A stretch of 64,000 bases of DNA from Alphaproteobacteria bacterium. GTDB taxonomy: Bacteria; Pseudomonadota; Alphaproteobacteria; MPNO01. Under the pieces are notes generated by a model that had not been told where the DNA came from, ran no database searches, and worked only from the letters and a program-made list of their open reading frames with translations. The translations under genes were made by a program, and so were the position numbers. The first letter of the stretch is position 1. Every line of letters begins with the position of its first letter. Positions 5,723 through 18,488 of this stretch are shown piece by piece. Location: positions 540,844 through 604,843 of the forward strand of contig OZ251446.1 of assembly GCA_965242495.1 (NCBI GenBank), given 5' to 3'.

Positions 5723-7414
5723 TCAGACGTAATACACCACCAGCAGCCCGCCCAGCATCACCGCCACCCACAGCGCCGTCGAGCCGGTCGGCCAGCTCCG
5801 CGCCAGGGCGCCCTGCGGGCCGTGATGGCGGTAGAGGCCCGCGATCAGCCGGTCGAGGCCCAGCCGCAGCTCTTCGAGGACGCCGAGATATCCCGGCCAG
5901 ACGACGCCGGACCACAGGCGCAGCAGCCGCGGCGGCAGCCGGCGATAGGTCCAGTCGAAATCGAGGTTGGTCGAGCGCATCTCCGGCGGGTAGATGCGGT
6001 AGCGCATCAGCACCGAGAAGGCGAGGGCCGAGAACATCAGCAGCTGCAGCTGGCCGATGACGTGGCTCGTCGTATAGGGCCGGTAGTCGACGTCGTAGGG
6101 CAGCAGGCCGTAGAGCCAGGGCGAATGGACGCCGAGCCCGATGCAGAGCGCCGCGGTCAGCCCCATGGCGATGCGCATGTTCCACGGCGCTTCCCGGCAG
6201 CGGCGGCCCGAGTCGTGGGCGAAGAAGGCGAAGAACGGGATCTTTATGCCCGAATGATGAAAGACTCCGGCGGAGGCGAACATCAACACCAGCCAGACGA
6301 TCAGATGGCCGTCATGGGCGGCCGCCGACAAGGTGAGCGACTTGGCGACGAAGCCGCTGAACAGCGGAAAGGCGGAGATCGACGCCGCCCCGACGATGCA
6401 ACAGGCGGCGGTGAACGGCATCGATTTGTACAGCCCGCCGAGATCCGTGCCCCTGATGGTTCCGGTGCGGAACAGCACCGCCCCCATCGACATGAACAGG
6501 AGCGCCTTGTACAGGATATGCGCGAAGGCGTGGCCGGCGGCGCCGTTGAGCGCCATCGGCGTGCCGATGCCGACGCCTACGACCATGAAGCCCAGCTGGT
6601 TGTTGAGGCTGTAGGCCAGCACGCGCCGCAGATCGTTCTCGATCACCGCGTAGAAGATCGGGAAGGCGGTCATGACCGCGCCGACATAGATCAGCAGCTC
6701 GGTACCCGGATAGCCGCGCGCCAGGGCGTAGACGGCCGTCTTGGTGGTGAACGCGCTGAGGAAGACGGTCCCGGTGACGGTGGCCTCGGGATAGGCGTCC
6801 TGCAGCCAGTTGTGCAGCAGCGGAAAGGCGCATTTGATCCCGAAGGCGAGGAAGATCAGCCAGCCGGCGAGGCTCCCGGTCCCGATCTTTCCGAACGCCA
6901 CCGATCCCGACTCCTGGGCCAGCAGCCCCGCCCCGGCCAGCAGCAGGACGCCGGAGCCGACCTGGATGACGAGATAGCGCATCCCGGCGCGGTAGGCCCG
7001 CTCGGTCCCGGTCGCCCAGACGAGGAACACCGACGAGACCGCCATCGCCTCCCAGTAGACGAAGAGGGTGATCAGGTCGCCGGCGAAGACGGCGCCGATG
7101 CCGCTGCCGGCGTAGACCATCGCCGCGGTCTGCTGCGCCGCGTCCTTGACGTGGAGGGCGTAGATCGCGCCCAGGAACGCCGCGACGTGGAAGATGTAGC
7201 CGAAGATCCGGCTCAGCGGGTCGATCCGCACCGGAACGAGGTCGAGGTCCAGGAAGCGGAAGGCGAGGTAGACGCCGGGATCGGTCGCGATCAGGGCCGC
7301 CAGCCCCGCGGCCGGCAAAGCGAGCAGCCAGGCGCCGCGCGCCGCCCCCCGCAGCAGCGGCGTCGCGAGCGCGCCCGCGATCAGCAGCAGTCCCGGCGGC
7401 AGGTCGAAGATCAT
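5723..7414 (-). CDS. Mrp/NuoN-type antiporter-like subunit (third NuoL/M/N-family paralog in the cluster) with an N-terminal extension
   Basis: 563 aa polytopic protein with proton-pumping antiporter family motifs (…LFVYWEAMAVSS…, …FGIKCAFPLLHNWLQDAYPEA…). Its ATG overlaps the stop of the upstream small ORF (ATGA). Confidence 0.8.
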   Translation of the reverse strand: MIFDLPPGLLLIAGALATPLLRGAARGAWLLALPAAGLAALIATDPGVYLAFRFLDLDLVPVRIDPLSRIFGYIFHVAAFLGAIYALHVKDAAQQTAAMVYAGSGIGAVFAGDLITLFVYWEAMAVSSVFLVWATGTERAYRAGMRYLVIQVGSGVLLLAGAGLLAQESGSVAFGKIGTGSLAGWLIFLAFGIKCAFPLLHNWLQDAYPEATVTGTVFLSAFTTKTAVYALARGYPGTELLIYVGAVMTAFPIFYAVIENDLRRVLAYSLNNQLGFMVVGVGIGTPMALNGAAGHAFAHILYKALLFMSMGAVLFRTGTIRGTDLGGLYKSMPFTAACCIVGAASISAFPLFSGFVAKSLTLSAAAHDGHLIVWLVLMFASAGVFHHSGIKIPFFAFFAHDSGRRCREAPWNMRIAMGLTAALCIGLGVHSPWLYGLLPYDVDYRPYTTSHVIGQLQLLMFSALAFSVLMRYRIYPPEMRSTNLDFDWTYRRLPPRLLRLWSGVVWPGYLGVLEELRLGLDRLIAGLYRHHGPQGALARSWPTGSTALWVAVMLGGLLVVYYV

Positions 7415-7737
7415 TCGTCCGCGTCCCGCGGCTCCGCCGCCCGGTCGCCGTCGCGGCGGTCATCGCCATCGCCATCGCCGCCGCCGTCGCCCGGATCGTC
7501 GTAATAGTCTTCGCTGCGCATCACCAGCCGGCGCATCTCCTTGGCCGCGACGACCAGGAAGACGCAGCACACGAAGCCGTAGACGCCGTGCGCGCCGAAC
7601 ATGCGCTCGACCTCGAACTCGCCATGCTTGTGGTAGAACGCATCGGCGGCGAACAGAACGGCGCAGACCGCGACCACCGCCCAATACACCTTGTCGACGC
7701 TGCCGGGCCGGTCGAGCCAGCCTTCCTTCGAGGTCAC
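7411..7737 (-). CDS. small two-helix membrane protein with a poly-acidic Asp/Gly C-terminal tail, embedded in the mrp-like operon
   Basis: Track ORF 7411..7905 in frame. The likely start is GTG at 7735-7737, preceded by GAGGAG. It has two predicted transmembrane helices (VYWAVVAVCAVLFAADAFY, GVYGFVCCVFLVVAAK) and the tail DDPGDGGGDGDGDDRRDGDRAAEPRDADE. Its TGA overlaps the ATG of the next gene. Confidence 0.5.
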   Translation of the reverse strand: MTSKEGWLDRPGSVDKVYWAVVAVCAVLFAADAFYHKHGEFEVERMFGAHGVYGFVCCVFLVVAAKEMRRLVMRSEDYYDDPGDGGGDGDGDDRRDGDRAAEPRDADE

Positions 7738-7747
7738 GCCCGTCTCC

Positions 7748-9253
7748 TCACGGTTGCGCGATAGGAAGAAGAAATTCGTATATTTCGTTGGCGAATATGA
7801 ATAATACGATGCAGGCGAGCGCGGTGAAGCAGAGCGGCGCCACGCATAGGAACGGCGCTTCCCGGATGCCGCCCCGGTCGCCGCGGCCCCGATCGCCGTG
7901 GTCATGGACGCGGTGGGCCTCCGGCTCGGCCGGCGGCGGCAGGAAGAAGCCGCGCGCCGGGATCGGCATGAGATAGGCGACGTTGAGCAGCGAACTCGCC
8001 ATCAGCACGCCGATCAGAACCAGCTGGCCGGCGTCGATCGCGCCCAGGGCGAGATACCATTTGCTCCACGCCCCGCCCAGGGGCGGCAGCCCGGTGACGC
8101 TGAGCGCGCCGATGAGGAAGGCGAGGAAGGTGAACGGCATGCGCCGGCCGAGCCCGGCCATGCCGCCGATCTCCGTCTTGTGCGCCGCCACCATGATCGC
8201 CCCGGCGCAGAAGAACAGGGTGATCTTGCCGAAGGCGTGCATCGCGATGTGCATGGCCCCGCCGACGATGCCGAAGGTCGTGGCCATGGCCCCGCCCATG
8301 ACGACGTAGCTCAGCTGGCTGACGGTCGAATAGGCGAGCCGCGCCTTGAGATTGTCCTTGGAGAGGGCGATCAGCGACGCGACGACGATGCTGGCCCCGG
8401 CGACGTACGTCAGCCATTCGCCGGCGCCGGTTTCGCGCAGATGGTCGGCGCCGAAGACGTAGAGGATCACCTTCAGCGCCGTGAAGACGCCCGCCTTCAC
8501 CACCGCCACCGCGTGCAGCAGCGCGCTGACCGGCGTCGGCGCCACCATCGCCGCGGGCAGCCAGCGGTGCAGCGGCATCAGCGCCGCCTTGCCGATCCCG
8601 TACATGTAGAGGAACAGCAGCACGCCCAGGAGCGGCCCCTCGACCTTGCCGTCGAGGATGCCGCCGGGGCGGAAGTCGAGCGTTCCCGCTGCCTGCCAGG
8701 TCCACAGGATCGCCACCAGCTGCAACCCGATCGAGGTCGACAGCAGGATGCCGAGATAGGTCCGCGCGCCCCGCATCGCCTCCGGCGACTGATGATGCGC
8801 GACCAGCGGGTAGGTCGAGATCGTCAGCACTTCATAGGCGACGAACAGCGTCATCATGTTCCCGGCCATCGCGACCGCGAGCGCGGCGGCGACGGCGACC
8901 GCGAAGCAGACGTAGAAGCGGGTCTGGTTCGCCTCGCGATGCCCGCGCATATAGCCGATCGAATAGAAGGAGGTGACGATCCACAGAAAGGACGCGACCA
9001 GGGCGAACAGCATGCCGAGCGGTTCGAGGACGAAGCGGAAGGCGAGGCCGGGGAGGAACTCGAACAAGACGAGGGCGGGCCGGCCGCCGTCGGCGACGAC
9101 GCCCAGGAGCGGCAGCGTCGCCAGGAAGGTGACCGCGGCGGCGGCGATGGTCGCCGCCTCGCGCAGGTTGGGCCGGCGGCGAAGGGCGGCGATCGCCGCG
9201 GCGCCGACCAAGGGCGCGGCCAGGGCCACCGCCATGAGGATGGGCGGGCTCAT
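7748..9253 (-). CDS. NuoL/MrpA-type antiporter-like subunit; it carries the NuoL-like domain only, without the MrpA C-terminal MrpB-like domains
   Basis: The true start is the ATG at 9251-9253 (MSPPILMAVALAAPLVGAAAIAAL…), overlapping the upstream stop (ATGA). The 140 codons upstream in track ORF 7748..9673 overlap the preceding gene. It carries the MrpA/NuoL-like signature …AMHIAMHAFGKITLFFCAGAI…. Confidence 0.8.
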   Translation of the reverse strand: MSPPILMAVALAAPLVGAAAIAALRRRPNLREAATIAAAAVTFLATLPLLGVVADGGRPALVLFEFLPGLAFRFVLEPLGMLFALVASFLWIVTSFYSIGYMRGHREANQTRFYVCFAVAVAAALAVAMAGNMMTLFVAYEVLTISTYPLVAHHQSPEAMRGARTYLGILLSTSIGLQLVAILWTWQAAGTLDFRPGGILDGKVEGPLLGVLLFLYMYGIGKAALMPLHRWLPAAMVAPTPVSALLHAVAVVKAGVFTALKVILYVFGADHLRETGAGEWLTYVAGASIVVASLIALSKDNLKARLAYSTVSQLSYVVMGGAMATTFGIVGGAMHIAMHAFGKITLFFCAGAIMVAAHKTEIGGMAGLGRRMPFTFLAFLIGALSVTGLPPLGGAWSKWYLALGAIDAGQLVLIGVLMASSLLNVAYLMPIPARGFFLPPPAEPEAHRVHDHGDRGRGDRGGIREAPFLCVAPLCFTALACIVLFIFANEIYEFLLPIAQP

Positions 9254-10731
9254 CCCGCCGATCCCAGCAGCGTCTCCGCGGCGCGCTGCGCCACGCCCAC
9301 GCTCACCGACGTCTCGATGCCGAAATAGACGTTGGCCGCGGTCAATATCCAGGCCGGGACGAGGAGGGCGGCCGGGGCCTCGGCGCGCCCCGCCGCGCCC
9401 GCCGGCGCCGGGCGGAACCAGGCCGCCTCGACGACGCGCCAGACGTAGATCACCGCCAGCAGCGAACTGGCGACGATCAGCGCCGCGACCGGCCACAGGC
9501 CGGAGTCGAGGGCGGCCAGGACGAGATGCCATTTGCTGACGAACCCGGCCGTCAGCGGCACGCCGATCAGGCTCAGCCCGCCGACGACGAACGCCGCCAT
9601 CGTCCACGGCATGCGCCGTCCCAACCCGGCGAAATCGTCCAGCTGGGCCGAGCGCAGCCGGTGAAACACGCATCCGACGGCCAGGAACAGGGCGCCCTTC
9701 ATCAGCGCGTGGTTGAACAAATGCAGCATCCCCGCGGCGAGGCCCGCCGCGGTGACGAAGCTCGCGCCCAGCACCATGTAGCCGATCTGCGCCACGCTCG
9801 AATAGGCGAGCAGGCGCTTCACGTCGTTCTGGAAGATGGCGACGGTCGAGGCGGCGAAGATCGCCGCGGTCGCGAGGGCCATCAGCGGGTATCTGGTCGG
9901 CAGCGTCTCGAACGAGAACTCAACCCCGAACACGGTGAAGAAGAAGCGCAGCAGGACGTAGATCGCGACCTTGGTGGCGGTGGCGGCGAGGAAGGCGCTG
10001 ACCGCCGAGGGCGCGTAGGCGTAGGCGTTGGGCAGCCACAGATGCAGCGGGAACAACGCGAGCTTGAGCGCCGCGCCGACGGTGAGAAACGCGAAGGCGA
10101 CGATCGCCGTCCGGTCGTAGCCGGCGTCGGGAAGCCGGTTCGCGATGTCGTGCATGTTGAGGCTGCCGGTCGCGTGGTAGAGCAGCCCCACCCCGATGAC
10201 GATGAAGGTGGCCCCGATCGTCCCCAGCACGAGGTATTGGTAGGCCGCGGTCAGCGCCCGCCGGTCGCGCCCCAGCCCGATCAGGACGTAGGACGACAGC
10301 GAGGAGATCTCGAGGAAGACGAACAGGTTGAACGCATCGCCGGTGATCGCGACGCCGAGCAGCCCGGCGAGGCACAGGAGGAAGGCGGCGTAGAACAGGT
10401 AGCGGCGTTCGCGGTCGAGTGCGAGCGGCATGTCGGCGCGGGCGTAGACGATGACGACGGCGGCGATGCCGGTGACGACCAGCAGCACGAAGGCGTTGAC
10501 CGCGTCGACGCGGTACTCGATCCCCCAGGGCGCCGCCCAGCCGCCGATCTCGTAGGAGATCACGCCGCGCTCCATGACCTCGCCGACCAGCAGGCAGGCG
10601 ATCGCGAAGGCGATCCAGACGGCGGCGAGGGCGAGGACGAACGCCCGGTCCCCGCCGCGCAGCAGAACGCAGGCCGGGGCCGCCAGCAGCGGCGCCACGA
10701 CCTGCAGGGCCGGAAGATGGGCGCCGATCAC
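9250..10731 (-). CDS. mrpD: Mrp antiporter subunit D (NuoN/M-like)
   Basis: 493 aa polytopic antiporter-like protein (…KRLLAYSSVAQIGYMVLG…HLFNHALMKGALFLAVG…). Its GTG start overlaps the mrpC stop (GTGA). Confidence 0.85.
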   Translation of the reverse strand: MIGAHLPALQVVAPLLAAPACVLLRGGDRAFVLALAAVWIAFAIACLLVGEVMERGVISYEIGGWAAPWGIEYRVDAVNAFVLLVVTGIAAVVIVYARADMPLALDRERRYLFYAAFLLCLAGLLGVAITGDAFNLFVFLEISSLSSYVLIGLGRDRRALTAAYQYLVLGTIGATFIVIGVGLLYHATGSLNMHDIANRLPDAGYDRTAIVAFAFLTVGAALKLALFPLHLWLPNAYAYAPSAVSAFLAATATKVAIYVLLRFFFTVFGVEFSFETLPTRYPLMALATAAIFAASTVAIFQNDVKRLLAYSSVAQIGYMVLGASFVTAAGLAAGMLHLFNHALMKGALFLAVGCVFHRLRSAQLDDFAGLGRRMPWTMAAFVVGGLSLIGVPLTAGFVSKWHLVLAALDSGLWPVAALIVASSLLAVIYVWRVVEAAWFRPAPAGAAGRAEAPAALLVPAWILTAANVYFGIETSVSVGVAQRAAETLLGSAG

Positions 10732-11081
10732 GGCTCCTCGTCCAGCTCGTGGATCTCGTCCTCTTCGATCGTGCCGTAGGCGTGGCGGATGCGCACCACC
10801 AGCGCGAGGCCGAGCGCGGTGGTGGCGACGCCGACGACGATCGCGGTGAGAATCAGGACGTGGGGCAGCGGGTTGGAATAGGTGGAGTAGGCGTCGTCGA
10901 GGATCGGCGCGGTGCCGCCCGCGACCTTGCCCATCGAGATGTAGAGGACGAACACCGAGGCCTGGAACACGTTGAGCCCGATGAGCTTCTTGATCAGGTT
11001 GCCGCGCGCCACGACGACGTAGAAGCCGGCCATCATCAGGAAGATGACGATCCAGTAGTTGTAGTGCCCGACGACGTCCAC
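10728..11081 (-). CDS. mrpC: Mrp antiporter subunit C (NuoK-like)
   Basis: 117 aa with three transmembrane helices: MDVVGHYNYWIVIFLMMAGFYVVVARGNLIKKLIGLNVFQASVFVLYIS…, the canonical MrpC/NuoK pattern. Confidence 0.85.
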   Translation of the reverse strand: MDVVGHYNYWIVIFLMMAGFYVVVARGNLIKKLIGLNVFQASVFVLYISMGKVAGGTAPILDDAYSTYSNPLPHVLILTAIVVGVATTALGLALVVRIRHAYGTIEEDEIHELDEEP

Positions 11082-11085
11082 GCCG

Positions 11086-11502
11086 TCAGCCGTCCTTCCT
11101 GGCGAAGGTGTAGAACAGCGTCATCATCACCGCGCCCACGGTGACGCCGACGCCCAGCTCGACCAGCAGGATGCCCAGATGCTGGCCGCTCCTGGGGTCG
11201 CGGTCGAGCACGAAGTAGTCGAGATAGTTGCCGCCCAGCAGCAGCCCGGCGACGCCGACGCCGGCGAACAGCAGCACCCCTCCGGCGATCCCGGCCCGCA
11301 GCGCGCCGATCGGCACGATGCGCTGCGCGTTGTCGATGCCGAAGACCAGCGCGTAGAGGATGAAGCCGGCGGCGAAGATGACCCCGGCCTGGAAGCCGCC
11401 GCCGGGGCCGTAATCGCCGTGGAACTGGACGTAGAGGGCGAACAGCAGGATGAACGGCGTCAGCAGCTTGGTGACGACGCGGAGCACGATGTATTCCCTC
11501 AT
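11086..11502 (-). CDS. mrpB: Mrp antiporter subunit B (GPGGGF motif type; MbhF-like)
   Basis: 138 aa from the in-frame ATG (MREYIVLRVVTKLLTPFILLFALYVQFHGDYGPGGGFQAGVIF…). The remainder of track ORF 11086..12096 is a low-complexity out-of-frame overlap with the upstream gene. Start and stop overlap as ATGA. Confidence 0.75.
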   Translation of the reverse strand: MREYIVLRVVTKLLTPFILLFALYVQFHGDYGPGGGFQAGVIFAAGFILYALVFGIDNAQRIVPIGALRAGIAGGVLLFAGVGVAGLLLGGNYLDYFVLDRDPRSGQHLGILLVELGVGVTVGAVMMTLFYTFARKDG

Positions 11503-12014
11503 CCCCCGTCCTCCGTCGGCCGGCGTTTGCGTCGCCAGCTCCCCAGCAGCAGGATGACGCCGATCCCGGCGGTGAAGATCACCGTCACCTCGCCCAGCGT
11601 GTCGTAGCCGCGATAGCTCGCCAGCACCGCGGTCACCACGTTGGGGACGCCGGTCTTGCGCTCGGCGTCGGCGAGATAGACCGGCGCCACATGGACGTGC
11701 GGCGGGGCCGAGGCGTCGCCGTAGCTCGCCATGTCGAGGCTGCCGTAGATCAGGGCGGCCCCGGTGACGGCGACGACCGCCAGCGGGATCCAGCGCGAAT
11801 GCGCCGGCGGCTTCTCGGTCCGCGTCGTCAGGGCCAGGGTGGCGAGGAAGAGCGCCGTCGCGATGCCGGCGCCGACCGCGGCCTCGGTGAAGGCCACGTC
11901 GACGGCGTCGAGCACGACGAAGATCGCCGCGGCGAGGAAGCTGTAGATGCCGCCCAGCATGACCACGGCGAACAGGTTGCGGAGCAGCACGATGGCCGCC
12001 GCGGTCAGCGCCAT
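11499..12014 (-). CDS. MrpA C-terminal-domain-like subunit (DUF4040/MbhD-like plus MnhB-like N-terminal region), encoded as a separate protein
   Basis: 171 aa (MALTAAAIVLLRNLFAVVMLGGIYSFLAAAIFVVLDAVDVAFTEAAVGAGI… then …NVVTAVLASYRGYDTLGEVTVIFTAGIGV…). This resembles the MrpA C-terminus / Mbh D+E subunits. Confidence 0.6.
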   Translation of the reverse strand: MALTAAAIVLLRNLFAVVMLGGIYSFLAAAIFVVLDAVDVAFTEAAVGAGIATALFLATLALTTRTEKPPAHSRWIPLAVVAVTGAALIYGSLDMASYGDASAPPHVHVAPVYLADAERKTGVPNVVTAVLASYRGYDTLGEVTVIFTAGIGVILLLGSWRRKRRPTEDGG

Positions 12015-12034
12015 GAAGGTCAGGATGACGATGT

Positions 12035-12367
12035 TCAGGACGTCTTCGATGCTTCGTCCTTTCCGTCCCGCAGCAGGGGGTCGAGGCCGCTCGCATGCGC
12101 GGTGTGGATCAGCGCATGGGTCGCGGTCGGGCTGGTGAAGGCGATGAAGATCAGGATCAGCATCAGCTTGACCGTGACCAGGGTGAAGCCGCCCTGGAGC
12201 ATCAGCCCGATCAGGATCAGCCCGGCGCCCAGCGTGTCGGTCAGGCTGGCCGCGTGGGCGCGGGTATAGACGTCGGGCAGGCGCAGCACGCCGATCCCGC
12301 CGGCGATCGTGAACGCCGAGCCCGCCAGCAGCAGAACCCAGCTCGCTGCGTCAATCGCCGCCGCCAC
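12035..12367 (-). CDS. mrpG: Mrp antiporter subunit G
   Basis: 110 aa with the MrpG signature …AGSAFTIAGGIGVLRLPDVYTRAHAASLTDTLGAG…. Confidence 0.8.
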   Translation of the reverse strand: MAAAIDAASWVLLLAGSAFTIAGGIGVLRLPDVYTRAHAASLTDTLGAGLILIGLMLQGGFTLVTVKLMLILIFIAFTSPTATHALIHTAHASGLDPLLRDGKDEASKTS

Positions 12368-12650
12368 CGCTCCGCCCGTCCCGGCCGCCCGGCCCGATGC
12401 CGAGATCGCCGTATTTGAAGTATTTCAGCATGGCGATCGTGGCGACGAAGTTGATCAGCGCATAGACCAGCGCGATGTCGAGGAAGTCGGGCCGCCCGGC
12501 GAGAAACCCGATCACGCCGATGATCAGCACCGTCTTGGTGCCGAACATGTTGACCGCGAGGATGCGGTCGTACAGCGTCGGCCCGGCGAAGCCGCGGATC
12601 AGGGCGAGCCCCATGGTCAGCAGGATGGCCGCGGCGGCGGCGCTAAACAT
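12351..12650 (-). CDS. mrpF: Mrp antiporter subunit F
   Basis: 99 aa with the MrpF signature …LYDRILAVNMFGTKTVLIIGVIGFLAGRPDFLDIALVYALINFVATIAMLKYF…. It overlaps mrpG by 17 nt. Confidence 0.8.
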   Translation of the reverse strand: MFSAAAAAILLTMGLALIRGFAGPTLYDRILAVNMFGTKTVLIIGVIGFLAGRPDFLDIALVYALINFVATIAMLKYFKYGDLGIGPGGRDGRSGGGGD

Positions 12651-13143
12651 CGCCCGCCTCCTGGACCGGCTCCTCGCCCGCCATGTCGGTGACGCGGCGG
12701 TCCATCTCGCCGGATTGGAGCGCCCGCGCGCCGTCTCGCGTCAGCGCATGGACGAGGATCTCGCCGGGCTCCACATCGACCGAGATCGTCCCCGGCGTCA
12801 GCGTGATCGAGTTGGCGTAGACCGCCAAAGCGAGTTCGGAGCGCTGGCTCGCGCGCAGCCGCACCAGCGTCGGGCTGATCGGCAGGCTCGGCGCGAGAAC
12901 GCGGCGGGCCACGTCGACGTTCGCCTTGGCCACCTCCCAGGCGAGCCAGGGCCAGTAGACGAAGGCGCGGCGCGTCATGTGGATCGGATGGCCCTCGTGA
13001 TCGACCAGCTCCATCCGCAGGGCCACCGCCACCACCGCGGCGGAGGACGCCAGCCCGAAGATCAGCAGCAACGGCGTGTAATGGCCGGAGAGCAGCAGCC
13101 AGACGCCGAACGACACCAGTCCGAGAGAGATCGCGTGAACCAC
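12643..13143 (-). CDS. mrpE: Mrp antiporter subunit E (start uncertain)
   Basis: The C-terminal 165 codons of track ORF 12643..13404 match MrpE (…[41 protein letters not shown]…, …[15 protein letters not shown]…). The upstream 80 codons are Arg/Pro-rich filler. The nearest plausible start is GTG at 13141-13143. Confidence 0.6.
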
Positions 13144-13333
13144 GAGCGCCTTGCCGACGTTGTCTTCTACGGACGCGCTGCATCGGCGGCCGCGACGCCG
13201 GATCCTATTACGGCCCCGGCGCGGTTTCCAGCGAAAACTCGCTCCGGCCCACGCCGCCGGCGACGAAAAAAACTTGGCGAAAATCGCCGCCGGCGATGGT
13301 AGACTGGCGGTAAAAGTAGGGAGGAGTCTCAGC

Positions 13334-13876
13334 GTGAACGAGACCGAGGGTGGGTATGAAGGGGCCGCGTCGACGCCGATCCGCGGCACCGTCAAATGGT
13401 TCAACGCCGTGCGCGGCTACGGGTTCGTCTCGCCCGAGGACGGCTCGGCGGACGTGTTTCTGCATATGACCGTTCTGCGGCAGGCGGGTCACGAGAAACT
13501 GCCGACCGGGGCCACGGTCGAATGCGAGACGGCGCAGGGCGCGCGGGGCCGCCAGGTTTCGTCGATCCTCCGGCTGGACCTGTCGACCGCGGTCGAGGAG
13601 GCCCCGCATCAGGGGCCGCGCTTCGCCCCGCCGCCCGAGCCGCAGCCGACCGGCGAGTTCATCGAGGCGACGGTCAAGTGGTTCAACCCGCATAAGGGGT
13701 ACGGCTTCGTCTGCCCGGTGGAGTCCGAGACCGACATCTTCATCCACATGGTGACGCTGCGGCGGGCGGGCATCGCCGGGCTGATTACCGGTCAGCAGGT
13801 CATGGTCCGCACCGCCGAGAGCCCGAAGGGCCTGCAGGCGACCGACATCCGCACCACGAGCGCCCCGCTGGCGTGA
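13334..13876 (+). CDS. tandem cold-shock-domain protein (two CSDs)
   Basis: GTG at 13334 is preceded by GGGAGGAG. The two CSD cores are [27 protein letters not shown] and [27 protein letters not shown]. Confidence 0.85.
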
Positions 13877-13920
13877 AGGCGGAGGCCGGCGCGGGACCGC
13901 CGGCCTCCGCTCCGGCGCTC

Positions 13921-14871
13921 CTATTCGTCCCGCGCCAGCTCGACCGCATAGCTGTCGAGCGGCGGGATCCAGTCGATCAACCCCTGCGCCTGAAGGAAGG
14001 CGGCGAAGCGCCGGTAACGCGCCCGGTCGAGGGCCGCGGGTCGGAGCGCGAACCGCGGCAGGGTGTCGCGCCAGGCGCGCCGGTTGAGCTCGTTCTCCAG
14101 CTCCTTCCGGCCTTTGACGAACAACTCCCAACTCCCCTGCGGGTGGTTGATCAGATATTGCGTTCCGCGTTCGACCGCGAACACGAAGGCGGCGAGGGCC
14201 GGGTCGGCGAGCTGCGCCCGGTTGGCGATGAGGATCAGCTCGTCGAACGCGGGAACGCCCTCCTCCTCGACGTAGAAGGCGCGGCCCGGGCGATTCTCCA
14301 GGTCGAGCTGGTTGAGTTCGAAATTCCGGTAGGCGCCGATGACGGCATCGACCTTGCCCGAGATCAACGCCGGCGACAGCGAAAAGTTGACGTTCACCAG
14401 GGTGATGTCGGCGAGCGTCAGCCCGTGCCCGGCGAGCATCGCCCGGAGCAGCGCGTCCTCGAACCCGCCGACGGAGAAGCCCACCTTCCGCCCCTTCAGA
14501 TCGGCGATCGAGCGGATCGGGCCGTCTCTGAGCGTCACCAGCGAGTTCAGCGGCGTCGCCACCAACGTCCCGATGCGCGCCAGCGGCAGCCTGGCCGCGG
14601 CCTGAAGGTGCAGCTGCGGCTGATAGGAGATCGCGACGTCGGCCTTGCCGGCGGCGACCAGCTTGGGCGGGTCGTTGGGATCGGCGGGCGCTTTGAGCTC
14701 CACTTCCAGGCCCGCTTCCGAGAAGTAGCCGCGTTCGAGGGCGACGTAGAGCGGCGCATGGTCCGGGTTGACGAACCAGTCGAGCAGGACGGTCATCGTC
14801 CTCGCGGTCGCGTCCGAACTCGCGCCGACCAGGACGCCGAGCAGGATCGCGCCGAAAACACGTCGAAGCAT
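13921..14871 (-). CDS. ABC transporter periplasmic substrate-binding protein, NMT1/THI5 (ThiY-like, pyrimidine-precursor) family
   Basis: 316 aa with an N-terminal signal peptide (MLRRVFGAILLGVLVGASSDA). NMT1-like fold hallmarks: …VLLDWFVNPDHAPLYVALERGYFSEAGLEVEL…. It is the last gene of the riboswitch-controlled operon. Confidence 0.8.
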   Translation of the reverse strand: MLRRVFGAILLGVLVGASSDATARTMTVLLDWFVNPDHAPLYVALERGYFSEAGLEVELKAPADPNDPPKLVAAGKADVAISYQPQLHLQAAARLPLARIGTLVATPLNSLVTLRDGPIRSIADLKGRKVGFSVGGFEDALLRAMLAGHGLTLADITLVNVNFSLSPALISGKVDAVIGAYRNFELNQLDLENRPGRAFYVEEEGVPAFDELILIANRAQLADPALAAFVFAVERGTQYLINHPQGSWELFVKGRKELENELNRRAWRDTLPRFALRPAALDRARYRRFAAFLQAQGLIDWIPPLDSYAVELARDE

Positions 14872-14890
14872 TGGAGCCTCCTCCGTTCGA

Positions 14891-15670
14891 TTACGTTCCG
14901 TTCCGTTCTTCCTGCTCCCCTGCCGGCAGCGTTTCCGCCTGCCAGGGGAGAGCGCGCCGCAACGCCCCGTCGATGGCGAAGTAGAGCGCGACGCCGAACG
15001 CCGCCAACACGAACAGGGCGGCGAACATGAGGTCGATCTGAAGCCGCGCGTTGGCGTGCAGCATGAGATAGCCGAGGCCGGCGCTCGAACCGACCCATTC
15101 GCCGACGACGGCTCCGATCGGCGCTACCGCGGCGGCCACCCGGAGGCCGGACGCGAGCGCCGGCAGGGCCGCCGGGATGCGGATATGGCGCAGCGTCGTC
15201 CAGCGGCTGCCGTTCATCACCCGGGCGAGGTCGAGCCATCCCTGGTCGGTGCGCCGCAACCCGTCGAAGAAGGCGGAAGCGACGGGGAAGTAGATGATGA
15301 GCACCGCCATCGCGATCTTGGAGGCGAGGCCGTAGCCGAACCACAGCACCAGCAGCGGCGCCAGGGCGAACACCGGCATCGCCTGGCTGAACACCAGCGC
15401 CGGCAGCAGCCAGCGCCGCGCCGGCCGGAAATAGCTCATCGTCAGGGCGGTCCCGCAACCGATCAGCGCGCCGATCGCCAGCCCGGCGAGGATCTCGAAG
15501 AAGGTCGTCCCCGCATGGGAGGCGATGAGCCCGGCCCCGTCGGCCAGCGCCGCGGCGACGCGGGCCGGTCCGGGCAGGATGAAATGGGGCGCGCCCGTGA
15601 GCCACACCACCGCCTGCCATGCGGCGACCAGCCCGCAGAAGACGACGGCGAGGCGCCGGGCCGCGCTCAC
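14891..15670 (-). CDS. ABC transporter permease (ThiX/SsuC-like)
   Basis: The GTG start at 15668-15670 overlaps the ATPase stop (GTGA). It has six predicted transmembrane helices and the EAA-like loop …LIIYFPVASAFFDGLRRTDQGWLDLARVMNGSRW…. The rest of track ORF 14891..17116 is read-through. Confidence 0.8.
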   Translation of the reverse strand: MSAARRLAVVFCGLVAAWQAVVWLTGAPHFILPGPARVAAALADGAGLIASHAGTTFFEILAGLAIGALIGCGTALTMSYFRPARRWLLPALVFSQAMPVFALAPLLVLWFGYGLASKIAMAVLIIYFPVASAFFDGLRRTDQGWLDLARVMNGSRWTTLRHIRIPAALPALASGLRVAAAVAPIGAVVGEWVGSSAGLGYLMLHANARLQIDLMFAALFVLAAFGVALYFAIDGALRRALPWQAETLPAGEQEERNGT

Positions 15671-16464
15671 GGCGCGTCCCCGGCCCGGATCAGCCGGCGC
15701 AGCAGCTCCGCCTGGCGGGCGAGCAGGACCGGGTCGGCCGGGTCGCGCGGGGCGGGGCCCGGCGGCTCCAGCGCCCGGTCGAGACGGGCCGGCTTGCCCG
15801 ACATGACGTGGATGCGGTCGGCGAGCCGCAGCGCTTCCTGCGGATCGTGGGTCACCAGCAGCACGGTGCGGCCGACCAGCAGCTCGGCGGCGAGCGCCTG
15901 GAGGCGCGCCCGGGTGATGGCGTCGAGGGCCGAGAAGGGCTCGTCCATCAGCACCACCGGACGGTCCTCCAGCAAAGTCCGCGCCAAGGCCGCGCGCTGG
16001 CGCATGCCGCCCGAGCAGGCCGCCGGCCGGTCGTCCTGCCGGTCGTCCAGTCCGACCCGGGCCAGCAGCGCCCGCGCGCGCCGCCGCAAGGCCGGGTCGC
16101 CGCGCCGCGCGCCGCGCAGCCGGGCGCCCAGCGCCACGTTGTCGAGCAGGCTGAGCCAGGGCAGCAGCAGGTCCTGCTGCGCCATGTAGGCGGCGCGCCC
16201 GGCGAGGGGACGGCCGTCGCTGCACGATATCCGCGTGCCCGCCGACATCGGCGCCAACCCGGCGATCGCGCGCAGCAGGCTGGTCTTGCCGACGCCGCTG
16301 GGACCCAGCAGGCAGGTCCAGCCCCCGCCTTCGAGGGTGAATTCGAGATCGTCGAACAGAATTTCCGCCCCGAAGGAGAGCCGCGCCGCCTCGACGATCA
16401 CCGCCGGCGGCGGCGACGGCGGGTTCGGATCGGGGGCGGCGGGTCGTCGCTGGCTCAACTGCAC
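15667..16464 (-). CDS. ABC transporter ATP-binding protein (ThiZ-like)
   Basis: 265 aa with Walker A (GPSGVGKTS), the signature motif (CSGGMRQRAALAR) and Walker B (VVLMDEPFSALD). Confidence 0.85.
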   Translation of the reverse strand: MQLSQRRPAAPDPNPPSPPPAVIVEAARLSFGAEILFDDLEFTLEGGGWTCLLGPSGVGKTSLLRAIAGLAPMSAGTRISCSDGRPLAGRAAYMAQQDLLLPWLSLLDNVALGARLRGARRGDPALRRRARALLARVGLDDRQDDRPAACSGGMRQRAALARTLLEDRPVVLMDEPFSALDAITRARLQALAAELLVGRTVLLVTHDPQEALRLADRIHVMSGKPARLDRALEPPGPAPRDPADPVLLARQAELLRRLIRAGDAP

Positions 16465-16556
16465 TGGTCCCTACGCCGGTGCGAACCGGATCAGGTTCGA
16501 GGGGTCGTCCGCGTATCGGACCTCTCAGCCGGGCGAACCGGCTCCCCCCAGTGGAG
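16465..16556 (-). ncRNA. TPP (thiamine pyrophosphate) riboswitch, THI-box, in the 5-prime leader of the NMT1-type ABC importer operon
   Basis: The minus-strand sequence reads GGGGGAGCCGGUUCGCCCGGCUGAGAGGUCCGAUACGCGGACGACCCCUCGAACCUGAUCCGGUUCGCACCGGCGUAGGGACCAGUGCAG. It contains the conserved CUGAGA, ACCUGAUC and CGGCGUAGGGA THI-box elements. The aptamer 3-prime end abuts and pairs over the GTG start of the ATPase gene. Confidence 0.85.
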
Positions 16557-16638
16557 GAGCGACTATGCGCCCGCCGCCCAGGCATGGCAAGCCCCGTCCC
16601 GGTCCGAGTTCGCCCGCGGGCGGGCGGAGCGATCCGGT

Positions 16639-16666
16639 TTGACAGGCGGCGGGCTGCGCCTATACT
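16639..16666 (+). promoter_or_regulatory. candidate sigma-70 promoter of rpsD (TTGACA-16nt-TATACT), giving a ~90-nt leader
   Basis: TTGACA at 16639-16644 and TATACT at 16661-16666 with 16-nt spacing. This is near-consensus in an otherwise GC-rich intergenic region. Confidence 0.55.
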
Positions 16667-16759
16667 CCGCCGCCTTCCCGGGGAAGAGGGCCGGGGGCCC
16701 GTCGCCGGCGAGGTCCGGGCGCGAACGATCGGGACAGCGACGAACGAAGGACGCGGCGC

Positions 16760-17374
16760 ATGACCAAGCGGTTGCAGTCGAAATACAAGATCAACCGGCG
16801 CCTCGGCGTCAATCTCTGGGGGCGGCCGAAAAGCCCGATCAACATGCGGGACTACGGCCCCGGCGAGCACGGCCAGCGTCGGCGCAAGCCGTCCGACTTC
16901 GGCATCCAGCTGAAGGCCAAGCAGAAGCTCAAGGGCTATTACGGCAACGTCACCGAACGGCAGTTCCGCCGGACTTACGAAGAGGCCGTGCGGCGGCGCG
17001 GCGACACGATCGAGAACCTGATCGGGCTGCTCGAACAGCGGCTCGACAGCGTGGTCTACCGGCTCAAATTCGTCCCTACCGTGTTCGCGTCGCGCCAGTT
17101 CATCAATCACGGACACGTCAAGGTGAACGGCCGGCGGGTCACGATCCCGTCCTATCGGGTCCGCGAGGGCGACGTGATCGAGATACGCGACCGGTCGCGC
17201 GAGATCCCGGTCCTGCTCGAAGCGATCGAATCCCCGGAGCGCGACGTGCCCGACTATCTCGACGTCGACTACAACAAGATGCAGGGGAGCTTGCTCCGCA
17301 TTCCCAAATTCGCCGACGTCCCCTATCCGGTGCAGATGGAGCCCAACCTGGTGGTCGAGTATTACTCGCGTTAG
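16760..17374 (+). CDS. rpsD: 30S ribosomal protein S4
   Basis: 204 aa: [43 protein letters not shown]…, with the canonical S4 N-terminus and S4 RNA-binding domain. Confidence 0.95.
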
Positions 17375-17805: not shown

Positions 17806-17864
17806 CGTATGACGGTCAGGTCCGCCCGCGGGCGGAGTGATCCAAGGAACGGAAGGCGAGAGAG

Positions 17865-18488
17865 ATGACGGACGAGAAGACCGACGGCGGCCGCTGGACG
17901 GAGATGGAGGAGAGCTGGCGCAGGGACCCCGGGTTCCGCTCGCGGATGGAGGCGGACCCGAGGGCGGCGCTGGCCGAGCACGGAATCGAGATTCCGAGCG
18001 GCGTCGACGTGCGCCTCGCGGTGGACAGCGAGGACACGATCCACGTGGTGGCCCCGCCCGACCCCAACCGCGCGATGTCGGACGACGATCTCGGCGTCGT
18101 CGTCGGCGGGACCGGCAGGATGACGTACGAGGAGTGGTCCGCCAGACTGGACAACCTCATACAGCGCTCCCGGAGCGGCGACTGCTTCCTGACCACGGCG
18201 GTGGCGGGGCGCCGGGGCGAGGCGGACGACGGGCCGACGCTGTCGGCGCTGCGGGGCTTCCGCGACGGCTACATGTCGGAGACGGAGGAGCGCCGGGAGA
18301 TGGTCGCGGCCTACTACGAGACGGCGCCCGCGATCGTCGCGGCGATCCCGGCCGGTCACGCCGACTGGGACTGGATCGGCGAGCGGATCGACGCCGCCGT
18401 CGCGGCGATCAGCGACGGCGACGGCGACGCGGCCTTCGACGTCTACGCCGGCATGGTCAGGCGCCTGACCAGCCGCTGGCTCGGATAG
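17865..18488 (+). CDS. nitrile-hydratase-leader-peptide (NHLP) family RiPP-type precursor; an 82-aa leader ending in Gly-Gly fused to a 125-aa C-terminal domain of unknown function
   Basis: The N-terminus EESWRRDPGFRSRMEADPRAALAEHGIEIPSGVDVRLAVDSEDTIHVVAPPDPNRAMSDDDLGVVVGG matches the NHLP leader consensus (…W.DP.FR..L.ADPKAALAEHGIEIPEGVEVRVVENTADTLHLVLPPKP….LSDEELE.VAGG) almost position for position, including the terminal double-Gly cleavage motif. The downstream region (TGRMTYEEWSARLDNLIQRSRSGDCFLTTAVAG…) has a single Cys and looks like a folded domain rather than a Cys/Ser/Thr-rich core peptide. Confidence 0.7.
   Translation: MTDEKTDGGRWTEMEESWRRDPGFRSRMEADPRAALAEHGIEIPSGVDVRLAVDSEDTIHVVAPPDPNRAMSDDDLGVVVGGTGRMTYEEWSARLDNLIQRSRSGDCFLTTAVAGRRGEADDGPTLSALRGFRDGYMSETEERREMVAAYYETAPAIVAAIPAGHADWDWIGERIDAAVAAISDGDGDAAFDVYAGMVRRLTSRWLG

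Follow-up and report, generated by a model that had tools for sequence, protein, structure and literature searches.

A ten-gene operon probably encoding a stand-alone Group 3 Mrp antiporter with three antiporter-like subunits, two of which have orthologues in rhizobial complex I

Is an mrp-like operon with three subunits of the NuoL/M/N type an antiporter in its own right, or the membrane half of a respiratory complex? The question is raised by a 64,000-nucleotide (nt) stretch of DNA from an Alphaproteobacteria bacterium (GCA_965242495.1, contig OZ251446.1, positions 540,844-604,843 of the forward strand), hereafter named the window, in which ten head-to-tail open reading frames (ORFs), all on the minus strand, span positions 5723-13143. 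A previous annotation made from the DNA letters, hereafter the sequence-only reading, had delimited ten genes in the order E-F-G-A'-B-C-D-A''-x-D' and had proposed both answers. All ten ORFs are indeed present, and are named here, in their order of transcription, mrpE-F-G-A'-B-C-D1-D2-x-D3. Our analysis indicates that the locus very probably encodes a stand-alone monovalent-cation/proton antiporter of the Mrp (CPA3) family, of Group 3 and with ten subunits, and for annotation purposes it should be labelled simply Group 3 Mrp antiporter. The ten genes are the following, with protein sizes in amino acids (aa).

mrpE, 12643..13143, minus strand: 166 aa, GTG start; Pfam MNHE, E = 4e-32.
mrpF, 12351..12650, minus strand: 99 aa; Pfam MrpF_PhaF, E = 3e-19.
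mrpG, 12035..12367, minus strand: 110 aa; Pfam PhaG_MnhG_YufB, E = 1e-24; TIGR01300, 79 bits for a cut-off of 63.
A', 11499..12014, minus strand: 171 aa; Pfam MbhD and MbhE (DUF4040); NCBIfam NF009159, 184 bits for a cut-off of 141.
mrpB, 11086..11502, minus strand: 138 aa; Pfam MnhB, E = 1.5e-29; NF009162, 182 bits for a cut-off of 120.
mrpC, 10728..11081, minus strand: 117 aa, NuoK-like; Oxidored_q2, E = 4.5e-23; NF005624, 135 bits for a cut-off of 95.
D1, 9250..10731, minus strand: 493 aa, Proton_antipo_M; antiporter-like subunit of the MrpD/MbhH/MbsH type.
D2, 7748..9253, minus strand: 501 aa, Proton_antipo_M; similar to the NuoL/MrpA core, without lateral helix.
x, 7411..7737, minus strand: 108 aa, GTG start after GAGGAG; two predicted transmembrane helices.
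D3, 5723..7414, minus strand: 563 aa, Proton_antipo_M; NF009310, 735 bits for a cut-off of 564.

All seven Mrp subunits or domains are found in this single-strand operon. None of the Mrp domains is degenerate, as judged with Pfam, NCBIfam and phmmer, and the curated NCBIfam cut-offs are exceeded by A', B, C, G and D3. In NCBIfam, MrpE best matches a long model of subunit E (NF009295, 368 positions), over the C-terminal half of the model, and no alternative start codon exists for mrpE in 13389-13143. With phmmer, A' aligned to residues 613-765, 650-795 and 661-811 of MrpA (7d3u_A, 7qru_A and 6z16_A, respectively), and it also matched MbhD, MbhE, MbsD and MbsE. This alignment to MrpA residues ~613-811, and to the MbhD/E and MbsD/E proteins, identifies A' as the split-off C-terminal domain of MrpA, equivalent to its transmembrane helices (TM) 17-21. 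The G+C content of the locus is ~69%, and reaches 83-92% at third positions in the ten frames. The packing is as tight as the sequence-only reading had described, but ATGA or GTGA overlaps are found at only 4 of the 9 junctions (A'-B, C-D1, D1-D2 and x-D3), and not at nearly all of them; E-F and F-G overlap by 8 and 17 nt, and the three other junctions are gaps of 20, 4 and 10 nt.

We compared this gene content with the definitions of the Mrp groups. Group 1 (mrpABCDEFG) does not fit, as the largest protein of the locus has 563 aa and no MbhD/MbhE/MnhB, and the order begins with E. Group 2 (mrpA'CDEFG) does not fit either: A' and B are separate genes here (with an ATGA overlap) in a set of ten, while a Vibrio Group 2 cluster used for comparison has a fused A of 855 aa. 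What the locus displays are the features of Group 3: no ORF fuses an antiporter core with MbhD/MbhE or MnhB, the MrpA C-terminal domain is a gene of its own, three genes encode Proton_antipo_M proteins, and the order is not A-to-G. Group 3 was the name given to mrp clusters of irregular order by Ito et al. 2017 (PMC5703873), and was described by Haja et al. 2021 as having no mrpA and only mrpD, sometimes in several copies (PMC8415708). In a haloalkalitolerant Nitrospira, Daebeler et al. 2020 reported a Group 3 Mrp with two NuoM/NuoL-like genes after mrpD (PMC7784846). The sequence-only reading had recognized an archaeal Mbh/Mbs/stand-alone Mrp order with a split MrpA, as well as three NuoL/M/N-like subunits, and both points were verified (A' is MbhD plus MbhE, and three Proton_antipo_M proteins are present). 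Its proposal of a distinct Mrp subtype is also correct, except that this subtype already has a name: the Group 3 kind is known, and annotated both by NCBIfam models and in the Nitrospira description.

The architecture had also been judged unusual for an alphaproteobacterial chromosome. D3 has thousands of database relatives, of which the best 120 are all 66-100% identical to it and nearly all 563 aa long. Apart from a database entry 100% identical to it, the nearest come from alphaproteobacterial, Rhodospirillaceae and Defluviicoccus metagenome-assembled genomes (MAGs), at 72-74% identity. At least 597 genomes with a confirmed D3 relative were counted in GTDB, taking one genome per species, and the ten window proteins were mapped onto the 80 best of these loci. 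All ten genes were found in 65 of the 80, and 64 of them have the exact single-strand order of the window (the 65th, locus L045, is described below); the remaining loci are interrupted by contig ends. Hosts include Alphaproteobacteria (Rhodospirillales, Rhodobacterales, Hyphomicrobiales), Betaproteobacteria (Accumulibacter, Burkholderiales) and Gammaproteobacteria (Shewanella, Colwellia, Marinicella, Arenicellales), and further Gemmatimonadota, Planctomycetota, Myxococcota, Nitrospira and Latescibacterota, and the ten-gene order recurs in at least eight bacterial phyla or classes. The surveyed loci show conservation of each subunit, with median identities of 45-71%. Because the same order recurs in 64 of the 80 best loci and in many phyla, many Alphaproteobacteria among them, this ten-gene architecture is ordinary, contrary to the initial impression. 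Many of the hosts were sampled in marine, saline or soda environments. The operon moves horizontally, since the trees of D2 and D3 depart from taxonomy.

One irregularity was noted among the surveyed loci: a Rhodospirillaceae MAG (L039, 9311-10537) gave a split D2 match that lacks residues ~198-306, which may reflect either a disrupted gene or masking of this segment in the database entry.

Among characterized systems, the stand-alone Group 3 Mrp of Pyrococcus furiosus, mrpEFGBB'CD (PMC8415708), shares with the window the E-F-G start, the split C-terminal part of MrpA and the order B, C, D. It likewise has no full-length mrpA and no redox module, and its MbhD/MbhE domains are on a separate gene. 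It differs by its single antiporter-like subunit, devoid of lateral helix, where the window has three, with a helix of NuoL length on D3, plus x. The P. furiosus MBS complex (6u8y) follows the same gene-order logic, D1 resembling MbsH, D3 MbsH' and A' MbsD/MbsE, but it has two antiporter-like subunits and a redox module (MbsM/J/K/L/N), whereas the window has three such subunits and no redox module. As for the Group 1/2 Mrp of known structure (Anoxybacillus 6z16, Bacillus pseudofirmus 7qru, Dietzia 7d3u), they share with the window all domains, the channel residues, and a lateral helix clamping a row of antiporter-like subunits. They differ in having a single MrpA of 800-960 aa, the A-to-G order, two antiporter-like subunits and no x.

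Closest in layout outside Bacteria is a nine-gene cluster on a plasmid of Halomontanus rarus (NZ_CP119800.1, locus L086), with the order E-F-G-DUF4040-MnhB-C-D-D-D and one-to-one orthologues of D1, D2 and D3 (45%, 47% and 38% identity, respectively). A further likeness is that the window MrpE best fits a long-form E model. The plasmid cluster differs by its MrpE of 386 aa; it has no separate x, and the x profile described below found no match in it; its D2 differs by a C-terminal extension of its own and an extra helix. The Group 3 locus of 'Ca. Nitrospira alkalitolerans' (PMC7784846) is similar by its description, two extra NuoM/NuoL-like genes lying downstream of mrpD, and a surveyed Nitrospira genome (L082) has the full ten-gene order; the paper contains no mention of ORF x and no analysis of a lateral helix. 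Cyanobacterial Group 3 systems (the Synechocystis 'mnh operon' and Aphanothece mrpCD1D2EFGAB) were compared by their literature descriptions. These have a short MrpA, a duplicated mrpD and an irregular order, and Na+/H+ antiport was shown in E. coli (PMC5703873, PMC3401165). Their order looks like a circular permutation of that of the window, with two mrpD reported instead of three.

We then examined the other answer, in which the cluster would serve as membrane arm to a redox complex of the MBH/MBS/Ehr/complex I type, with its soluble or anchor module elsewhere in the genome. The gene order and the top solved relatives of D1 (MbsH) and D3 (MbsH') are of the archaeal MBS respiratory complex type, and the D2-x-D3 trio does occur within a rhizobial nuo operon (see below), which speaks for such an arm. 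However, the NuoH/MbhM-type anchor found in every redox-coupled relative is absent: by Pfam, none of the ten proteins matches this family or the NuoB/D-type families. No Nuo or hydrogenase gene, including NuoB/D/C/I-like ones, was found among the flanking ORFs scanned out to ~23 kb, and no further antiporter-like paralogue exists anywhere in the window. We also grouped into families all ORFs found up to 7 kb from each of the 64 complete clusters, and no hydrogenase, Nuo or formate-lyase family recurs among them; the commonest neighbour, a generic ATP-binding cassette (ABC) ATPase, is present at 14 of the 64 loci. The absence of adjacent hydrogenase, Nuo or formate-lyase subunits, already noticed in the sequence-only reading, is confirmed, and at none of the 64 loci is a neighbour of these kinds conserved. 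Moreover, the full Na+-module set E, F, G and B is typical of stand-alone Mrp, and D3 would provide MrpA TM1-16, the energy-input part that is missing in the stand-alone P. furiosus Mrp (PMC8415708). Taken together, these observations leave the redox-arm hypothesis with hardly any likelihood. A CO2 hydration complex of the DAB type was also considered, and rejected because no DabA-like gene is present.

Having placed the locus with the stand-alone antiporters, we analyzed its three antiporter-like subunits. They are distant paralogues, with pairwise identities of only 26-30%. D1 was confirmed to be MrpD-like: its top solved relatives are MbsH (6u8y_H, 228 bits), MrpD (7qru_D, 201 bits) and MbhH (6cfw_H, 196 bits), and a neighbour-joining tree places it in a group with MrpD and NuoN. 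D2, which contains the HAFGKITLFF motif, has NdhF (127 bits), Nqo12 (116 bits) and then NuoL as top solved relatives, and shares with NuoL and MrpA a TM8 histidine, aligned to H254 of E. coli NuoL. The MrpA/NuoL-like label that it had received is therefore justified, but not as the only MrpA-like subunit, because the clamp helix and the anchor are on D3: in D2, the 14-helix core is followed by one hydrophobic helix only, and no clamp helix. D2 is orthologous to the haloarchaeal D2 (47% identity) and to the first of the MrpD-like genes in a rhizobial nuo cluster.

The top solved sequence relative of D3 is MbsH' (6u8y_X). Its AlphaFold2 model (mean predicted local distance difference test score, pLDDT, 70.5) shows residues 487-531 as one continuous helix and, after it, residues 543-562 as a terminal transmembrane helix. 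When the model was searched with Foldseek, MrpA chains, NdhF, NuoL and MbsH' ranked first, with more than 600 aligned columns. An FDWxY motif at the start of the lateral helix is common to D3 and NuoL. It is therefore D3, and not D2, that bears a lateral helix of NuoL length and a terminal anchor. An N-terminal extension had been attributed to this protein; in fact, its Pfam core starts at residue 111, compared to 130-132 in D1 and D2, and the extension is C-terminal. By sequence and model, D3 appears to be the functional equivalent of MrpA TM1-16, NuoL and MbsH'.

The extra subunits might have been recent tandem duplicates of mrpD. This was rejected, given the 26-30% identity between paralogues and the separate haloarchaeal orthologue that each possesses. 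Since D1, D2 and D3 have one-to-one orthologues in haloarchaea, the three paralogues are older than the bacterial-haloarchaeal divergence of the cluster.

To align channel residues, E. coli NuoL, NuoM and NuoN were used as references, the key residues being verified in the K-12 sequence. The sequence-only reading had asked whether the charged lysines and glutamate are conserved, and they are. D1, D2 and D3 all retain the TM5 glutamate, the TM7 lysine, the TM8 histidine or lysine (lysine in D1), the histidine/histidine/lysine set of TM11 and the TM12 lysine; apart from the TM8 residue, these align to E144, K229, H334, H338, K342 and K399 of E. coli NuoL. The charged proton-channel residues of the Mrp/CPA3 family are thus present in each of the three subunits, and none of them looks like a dead copy. 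Lysines K194, K225, K303 and K358 of D3 are invariant across 41 homologues.

The TM7 lysine (the E. coli NuoL K229 column) is replaced by an asparagine in two D3 orthologues, one rhizobial (L001, 8869-10629) and one from the H. rarus cluster (L086, 10151-11947).

Could D2 or D3 be a structural scaffold that conducts no proton, leaving a functionally two-pump Mrp? The asparagines of the haloarchaeal and rhizobial D3 orthologues indicate that the TM7 position can be lost in this lineage. Against this stand the complete residue set of the window D1, D2 and D3 and the four D3 lysines kept in all 41 homologues, and we regard the scaffold hypothesis as very improbable.

How the three subunits are arranged may be read from the lateral helix. 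NuoL clamps two antiporter-like subunits, and MrpA clamps one. The spacer between TM15 and TM16 has ~71 aa in D3, compared to ~75 in E. coli NuoL and ~45 in the Vibrio Group 2 MrpA. In enlarged forms of complex I, the lateral helix grows by ~26 aa per added subunit (PMC9040806). The D3 spacer matches an increment of ~26 aa for one extra subunit, which argues for a row MrpC-D1-D2-D3 with D3 in the distal position. The alternative row, with D3 beside D1 and D2 distal, is less likely, as the spacer has 71 aa and not the 45 aa of an MrpA that clamps a single subunit.

The small subunit x is a predicted two-helix membrane protein with an invariant C-terminal R-x-EDYYD motif, and an acidic tail in this organism. 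It has no Pfam or NCBIfam match. Its AlphaFold2 model is a helical hairpin with a weak pLDDT of 64, and a Foldseek search of the PDB with this model gave a best E value of 8, a two-helix hairpin carrying no fold information. The 76 close homologues of x are unnamed or hypothetical proteins, one entry from the JGI being mislabelled as a melibiose symporter. In a library of 1.8 billion proteins, the x family comprises 2137 representative clusters at 50% identity (E ≤ 1e-3), each of the best 150 being a short, stand-alone protein. We searched 13,413 ORFs with a profile of 46 x sequences: it matched at 78 genome loci, between D2 and D3, and in a small ORF of a rhizobial nuo operon, with no match elsewhere. 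A tblastn search of the plasmid collection gave no match at E ≤ 0.01, the rhizobial homology being visible by profile instead. In locus L045, from an alphaproteobacterial MAG (9775-17169), the x-D3 pair is inverted as a whole and convergent with E-F-G-A'-B-C-D1-D2; whether the inversion is real or an assembly artefact, x accompanies D3. In the window, the overlap between x and D3 is an ATGA. The family of x, ~2,100 clusters, is therefore a widespread and conserved two-helix membrane family, devoid of family name and of function label.

On plasmids, D3 matched best in a second nuo operon carried by megaplasmids of Sinorhizobium and Rhizobium, which reads nuoJ, nuoK, an MrpD-family gene, a hypothetical gene of 84 aa, a "Na+/H+ antiporter subunit D", nuoM and nuoN. 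The trios are located as follows.

L001, 7162-10629: D2-x-D3 trio in one of these megaplasmid nuo operons.
L002, 7171-10653: D2-x-D3 trio in another of them.

The account of this "green" complex I given in PMC9040806, which cites Degli Esposti and Martinez-Romero 2016, mentions two MrpD-like subunits in place of NuoL. We found that the two large rhizobial genes are orthologues of D2 and D3, grouping with them in clades with 90-100% bootstrap, and that the rhizobial D3 is 47-48% identical to that of the window. The 84-aa gene is a homologue of x (profile E = 1e-13 and 1e-11). Because the large genes fall in the D2 and D3 clades and the small one matches the x profile, the rhizobial and window trios are one and the same cassette. 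Its context differs: in green complex I the trio lies between nuoK and nuoM, replacing nuoL, within a full NADH dehydrogenase operon, whereas in the window it follows mrpC-D1 and is itself followed by a convergent aminotransferase gene, and no nuo genes were found. The D3 of green complex I also differs by a spacer longer by ~12 aa, with 18 inserted residues in the lateral-helix region of the alignment, in addition to the TM7 asparagine. The rhizobial copies fell outside the sampled Mrp clade in every one of 100 bootstraps, which gives no support to an origin of the rhizobial cassette inside this clade and points to neither system as the donor.

From these elements a mechanism can be proposed for the antiporter. 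E, F, G, B, C and A' would form the cation-translocating end, judging from their homologues in Mrp, MBH and MBS structures, and D1, of the MrpD type, would adjoin MrpC. D2 and D3 would lengthen the row, giving three proton channels compared to two in Group 1/2 Mrp, with D3 at the distal end and its lateral helix and terminal anchor clamping D2 and D1; x might be an accessory subunit in the membrane, associated with the D2/D3 pair. Protons driven inward by the proton-motive force through the three channels would power the export of Na+ (or K+). The likely effect would be a higher number of H+ per cation, useful at high salt, at high pH or under low proton-motive force, and the many marine, saline and alkaline hosts are consistent with such a ratio. 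The tested Group 3 relatives, the Mrp of Aphanothece (PMC5703873) and of P. furiosus (PMC8415708), use Na+.

The same architecture might perform another job, either K+/H+ or Ca2+/H+ exchange, or Na+-driven H+ export for pH homeostasis on the acid side. Precedents exist: Sinorhizobium Pha1 is a K+/H+ system and the Thermomicrobium Mrp a Ca2+/H+ antiporter (PMC5703873), and in the Group 3 Mrp of P. furiosus, Na+ import expels H+ at low pH (PMC8415708). The sequence fixes neither ion nor direction. However, both tested Group 3 systems use Na+, and the hosts are weighted to marine, saline and soda-lake genomes, including the haloalkalitolerant Nitrospira (PMC7784846). Such a different role is therefore rather unlikely in our opinion.

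Several points weigh against the proposed Na+-exporting, three-channel antiporter. No functional, biochemical or structural study of the ten-gene form was found in the searched literature. Ion specificity is not readable from sequence, Ca2+/H+ antiport is on record for one Mrp (PMC5703873), and the P. furiosus Mrp appears to run toward H+ export at low pH (PMC8415708), which bears on the direction. The row order is deduced from gene order and helix length, and the models are of limited quality, with a moderate pLDDT of 50-72 in the helix region of D3 and a weak one for x. Finally, the spacer of the rhizobial D3 (L001, 8869-10629) has ~83 aa, compared to ~100 expected for a clamp over D2, NuoM and NuoN; given this short spacer, the order of subunits in green complex I may differ from the order of its genes.

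A more ambitious proposal, which we advance as a possibility and somewhat doubtfully, takes the above as a whole: the ten-subunit form would be a mechanistically distinct three-channel Mrp with a higher H+/Na+ ratio, and D2-x-D3 a portable pump-extension cassette, x serving as docking adaptor, that has been plugged into Mrp and, replacing NuoL, into complex I (the green form of rhizobia and its relatives). The three-subunit form is common, and offers a natural test of how an added proton channel affects H+/Na+ stoichiometry, a matter left open by the two-channel Mrp structures. A structure of the antiporter would also inform how green complex I holds its fourth pump, since D2-x-D3 is shared. 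The points of wider interest are only x and this shared cassette.

Both flanks of the operon are as initially described. On one side lie a convergent class IV aminotransferase gene and glmS, and on the other a divergent double cold-shock-domain gene, beyond which an ABC uptake operon is controlled by a thiamine pyrophosphate (TPP) riboswitch. The remaining features of this second flank are the following.

Divergent intergenic region, 13144..13327, no strand: between mrpE and the double cold-shock-domain gene; presumed, from the positions of the genes, to contain the operon's promoter and leader.
Terminator-like GC hairpin followed by seven T, 13291-13276, minus strand: in the 5' leader of the mrp operon.
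Double cold-shock-domain gene, ~13328-13876, plus strand: divergent from mrpE.
Uptake genes, 13921-16470, minus strand: ABC ATPase, permease and NMT1/THI5-like binding protein.
TPP riboswitch RF00059 (75.5 bits), 16450-16558, minus strand: upstream of the uptake genes.
ORF, 17841-18488, plus strand: partial match to the nitrile hydratase alpha chain.

The hairpin is the sole motif found in the leader, and one terminator-like site was found in this region by a scan for which 3.2 were expected by chance; it may act as an attenuator or have arisen by chance. The divergent arrangement of the cold-shock gene recurs in 10 of the 64 related loci, all closer relatives. The riboswitch-linked genes probably serve the uptake of a thiamine precursor, and NMT1 and ABC genes recur beside the mrp operon in ~8-10 of the 64 loci. 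In the nitrile hydratase-like ORF, the match (E = 8e-7) covers residues 25-86 only.

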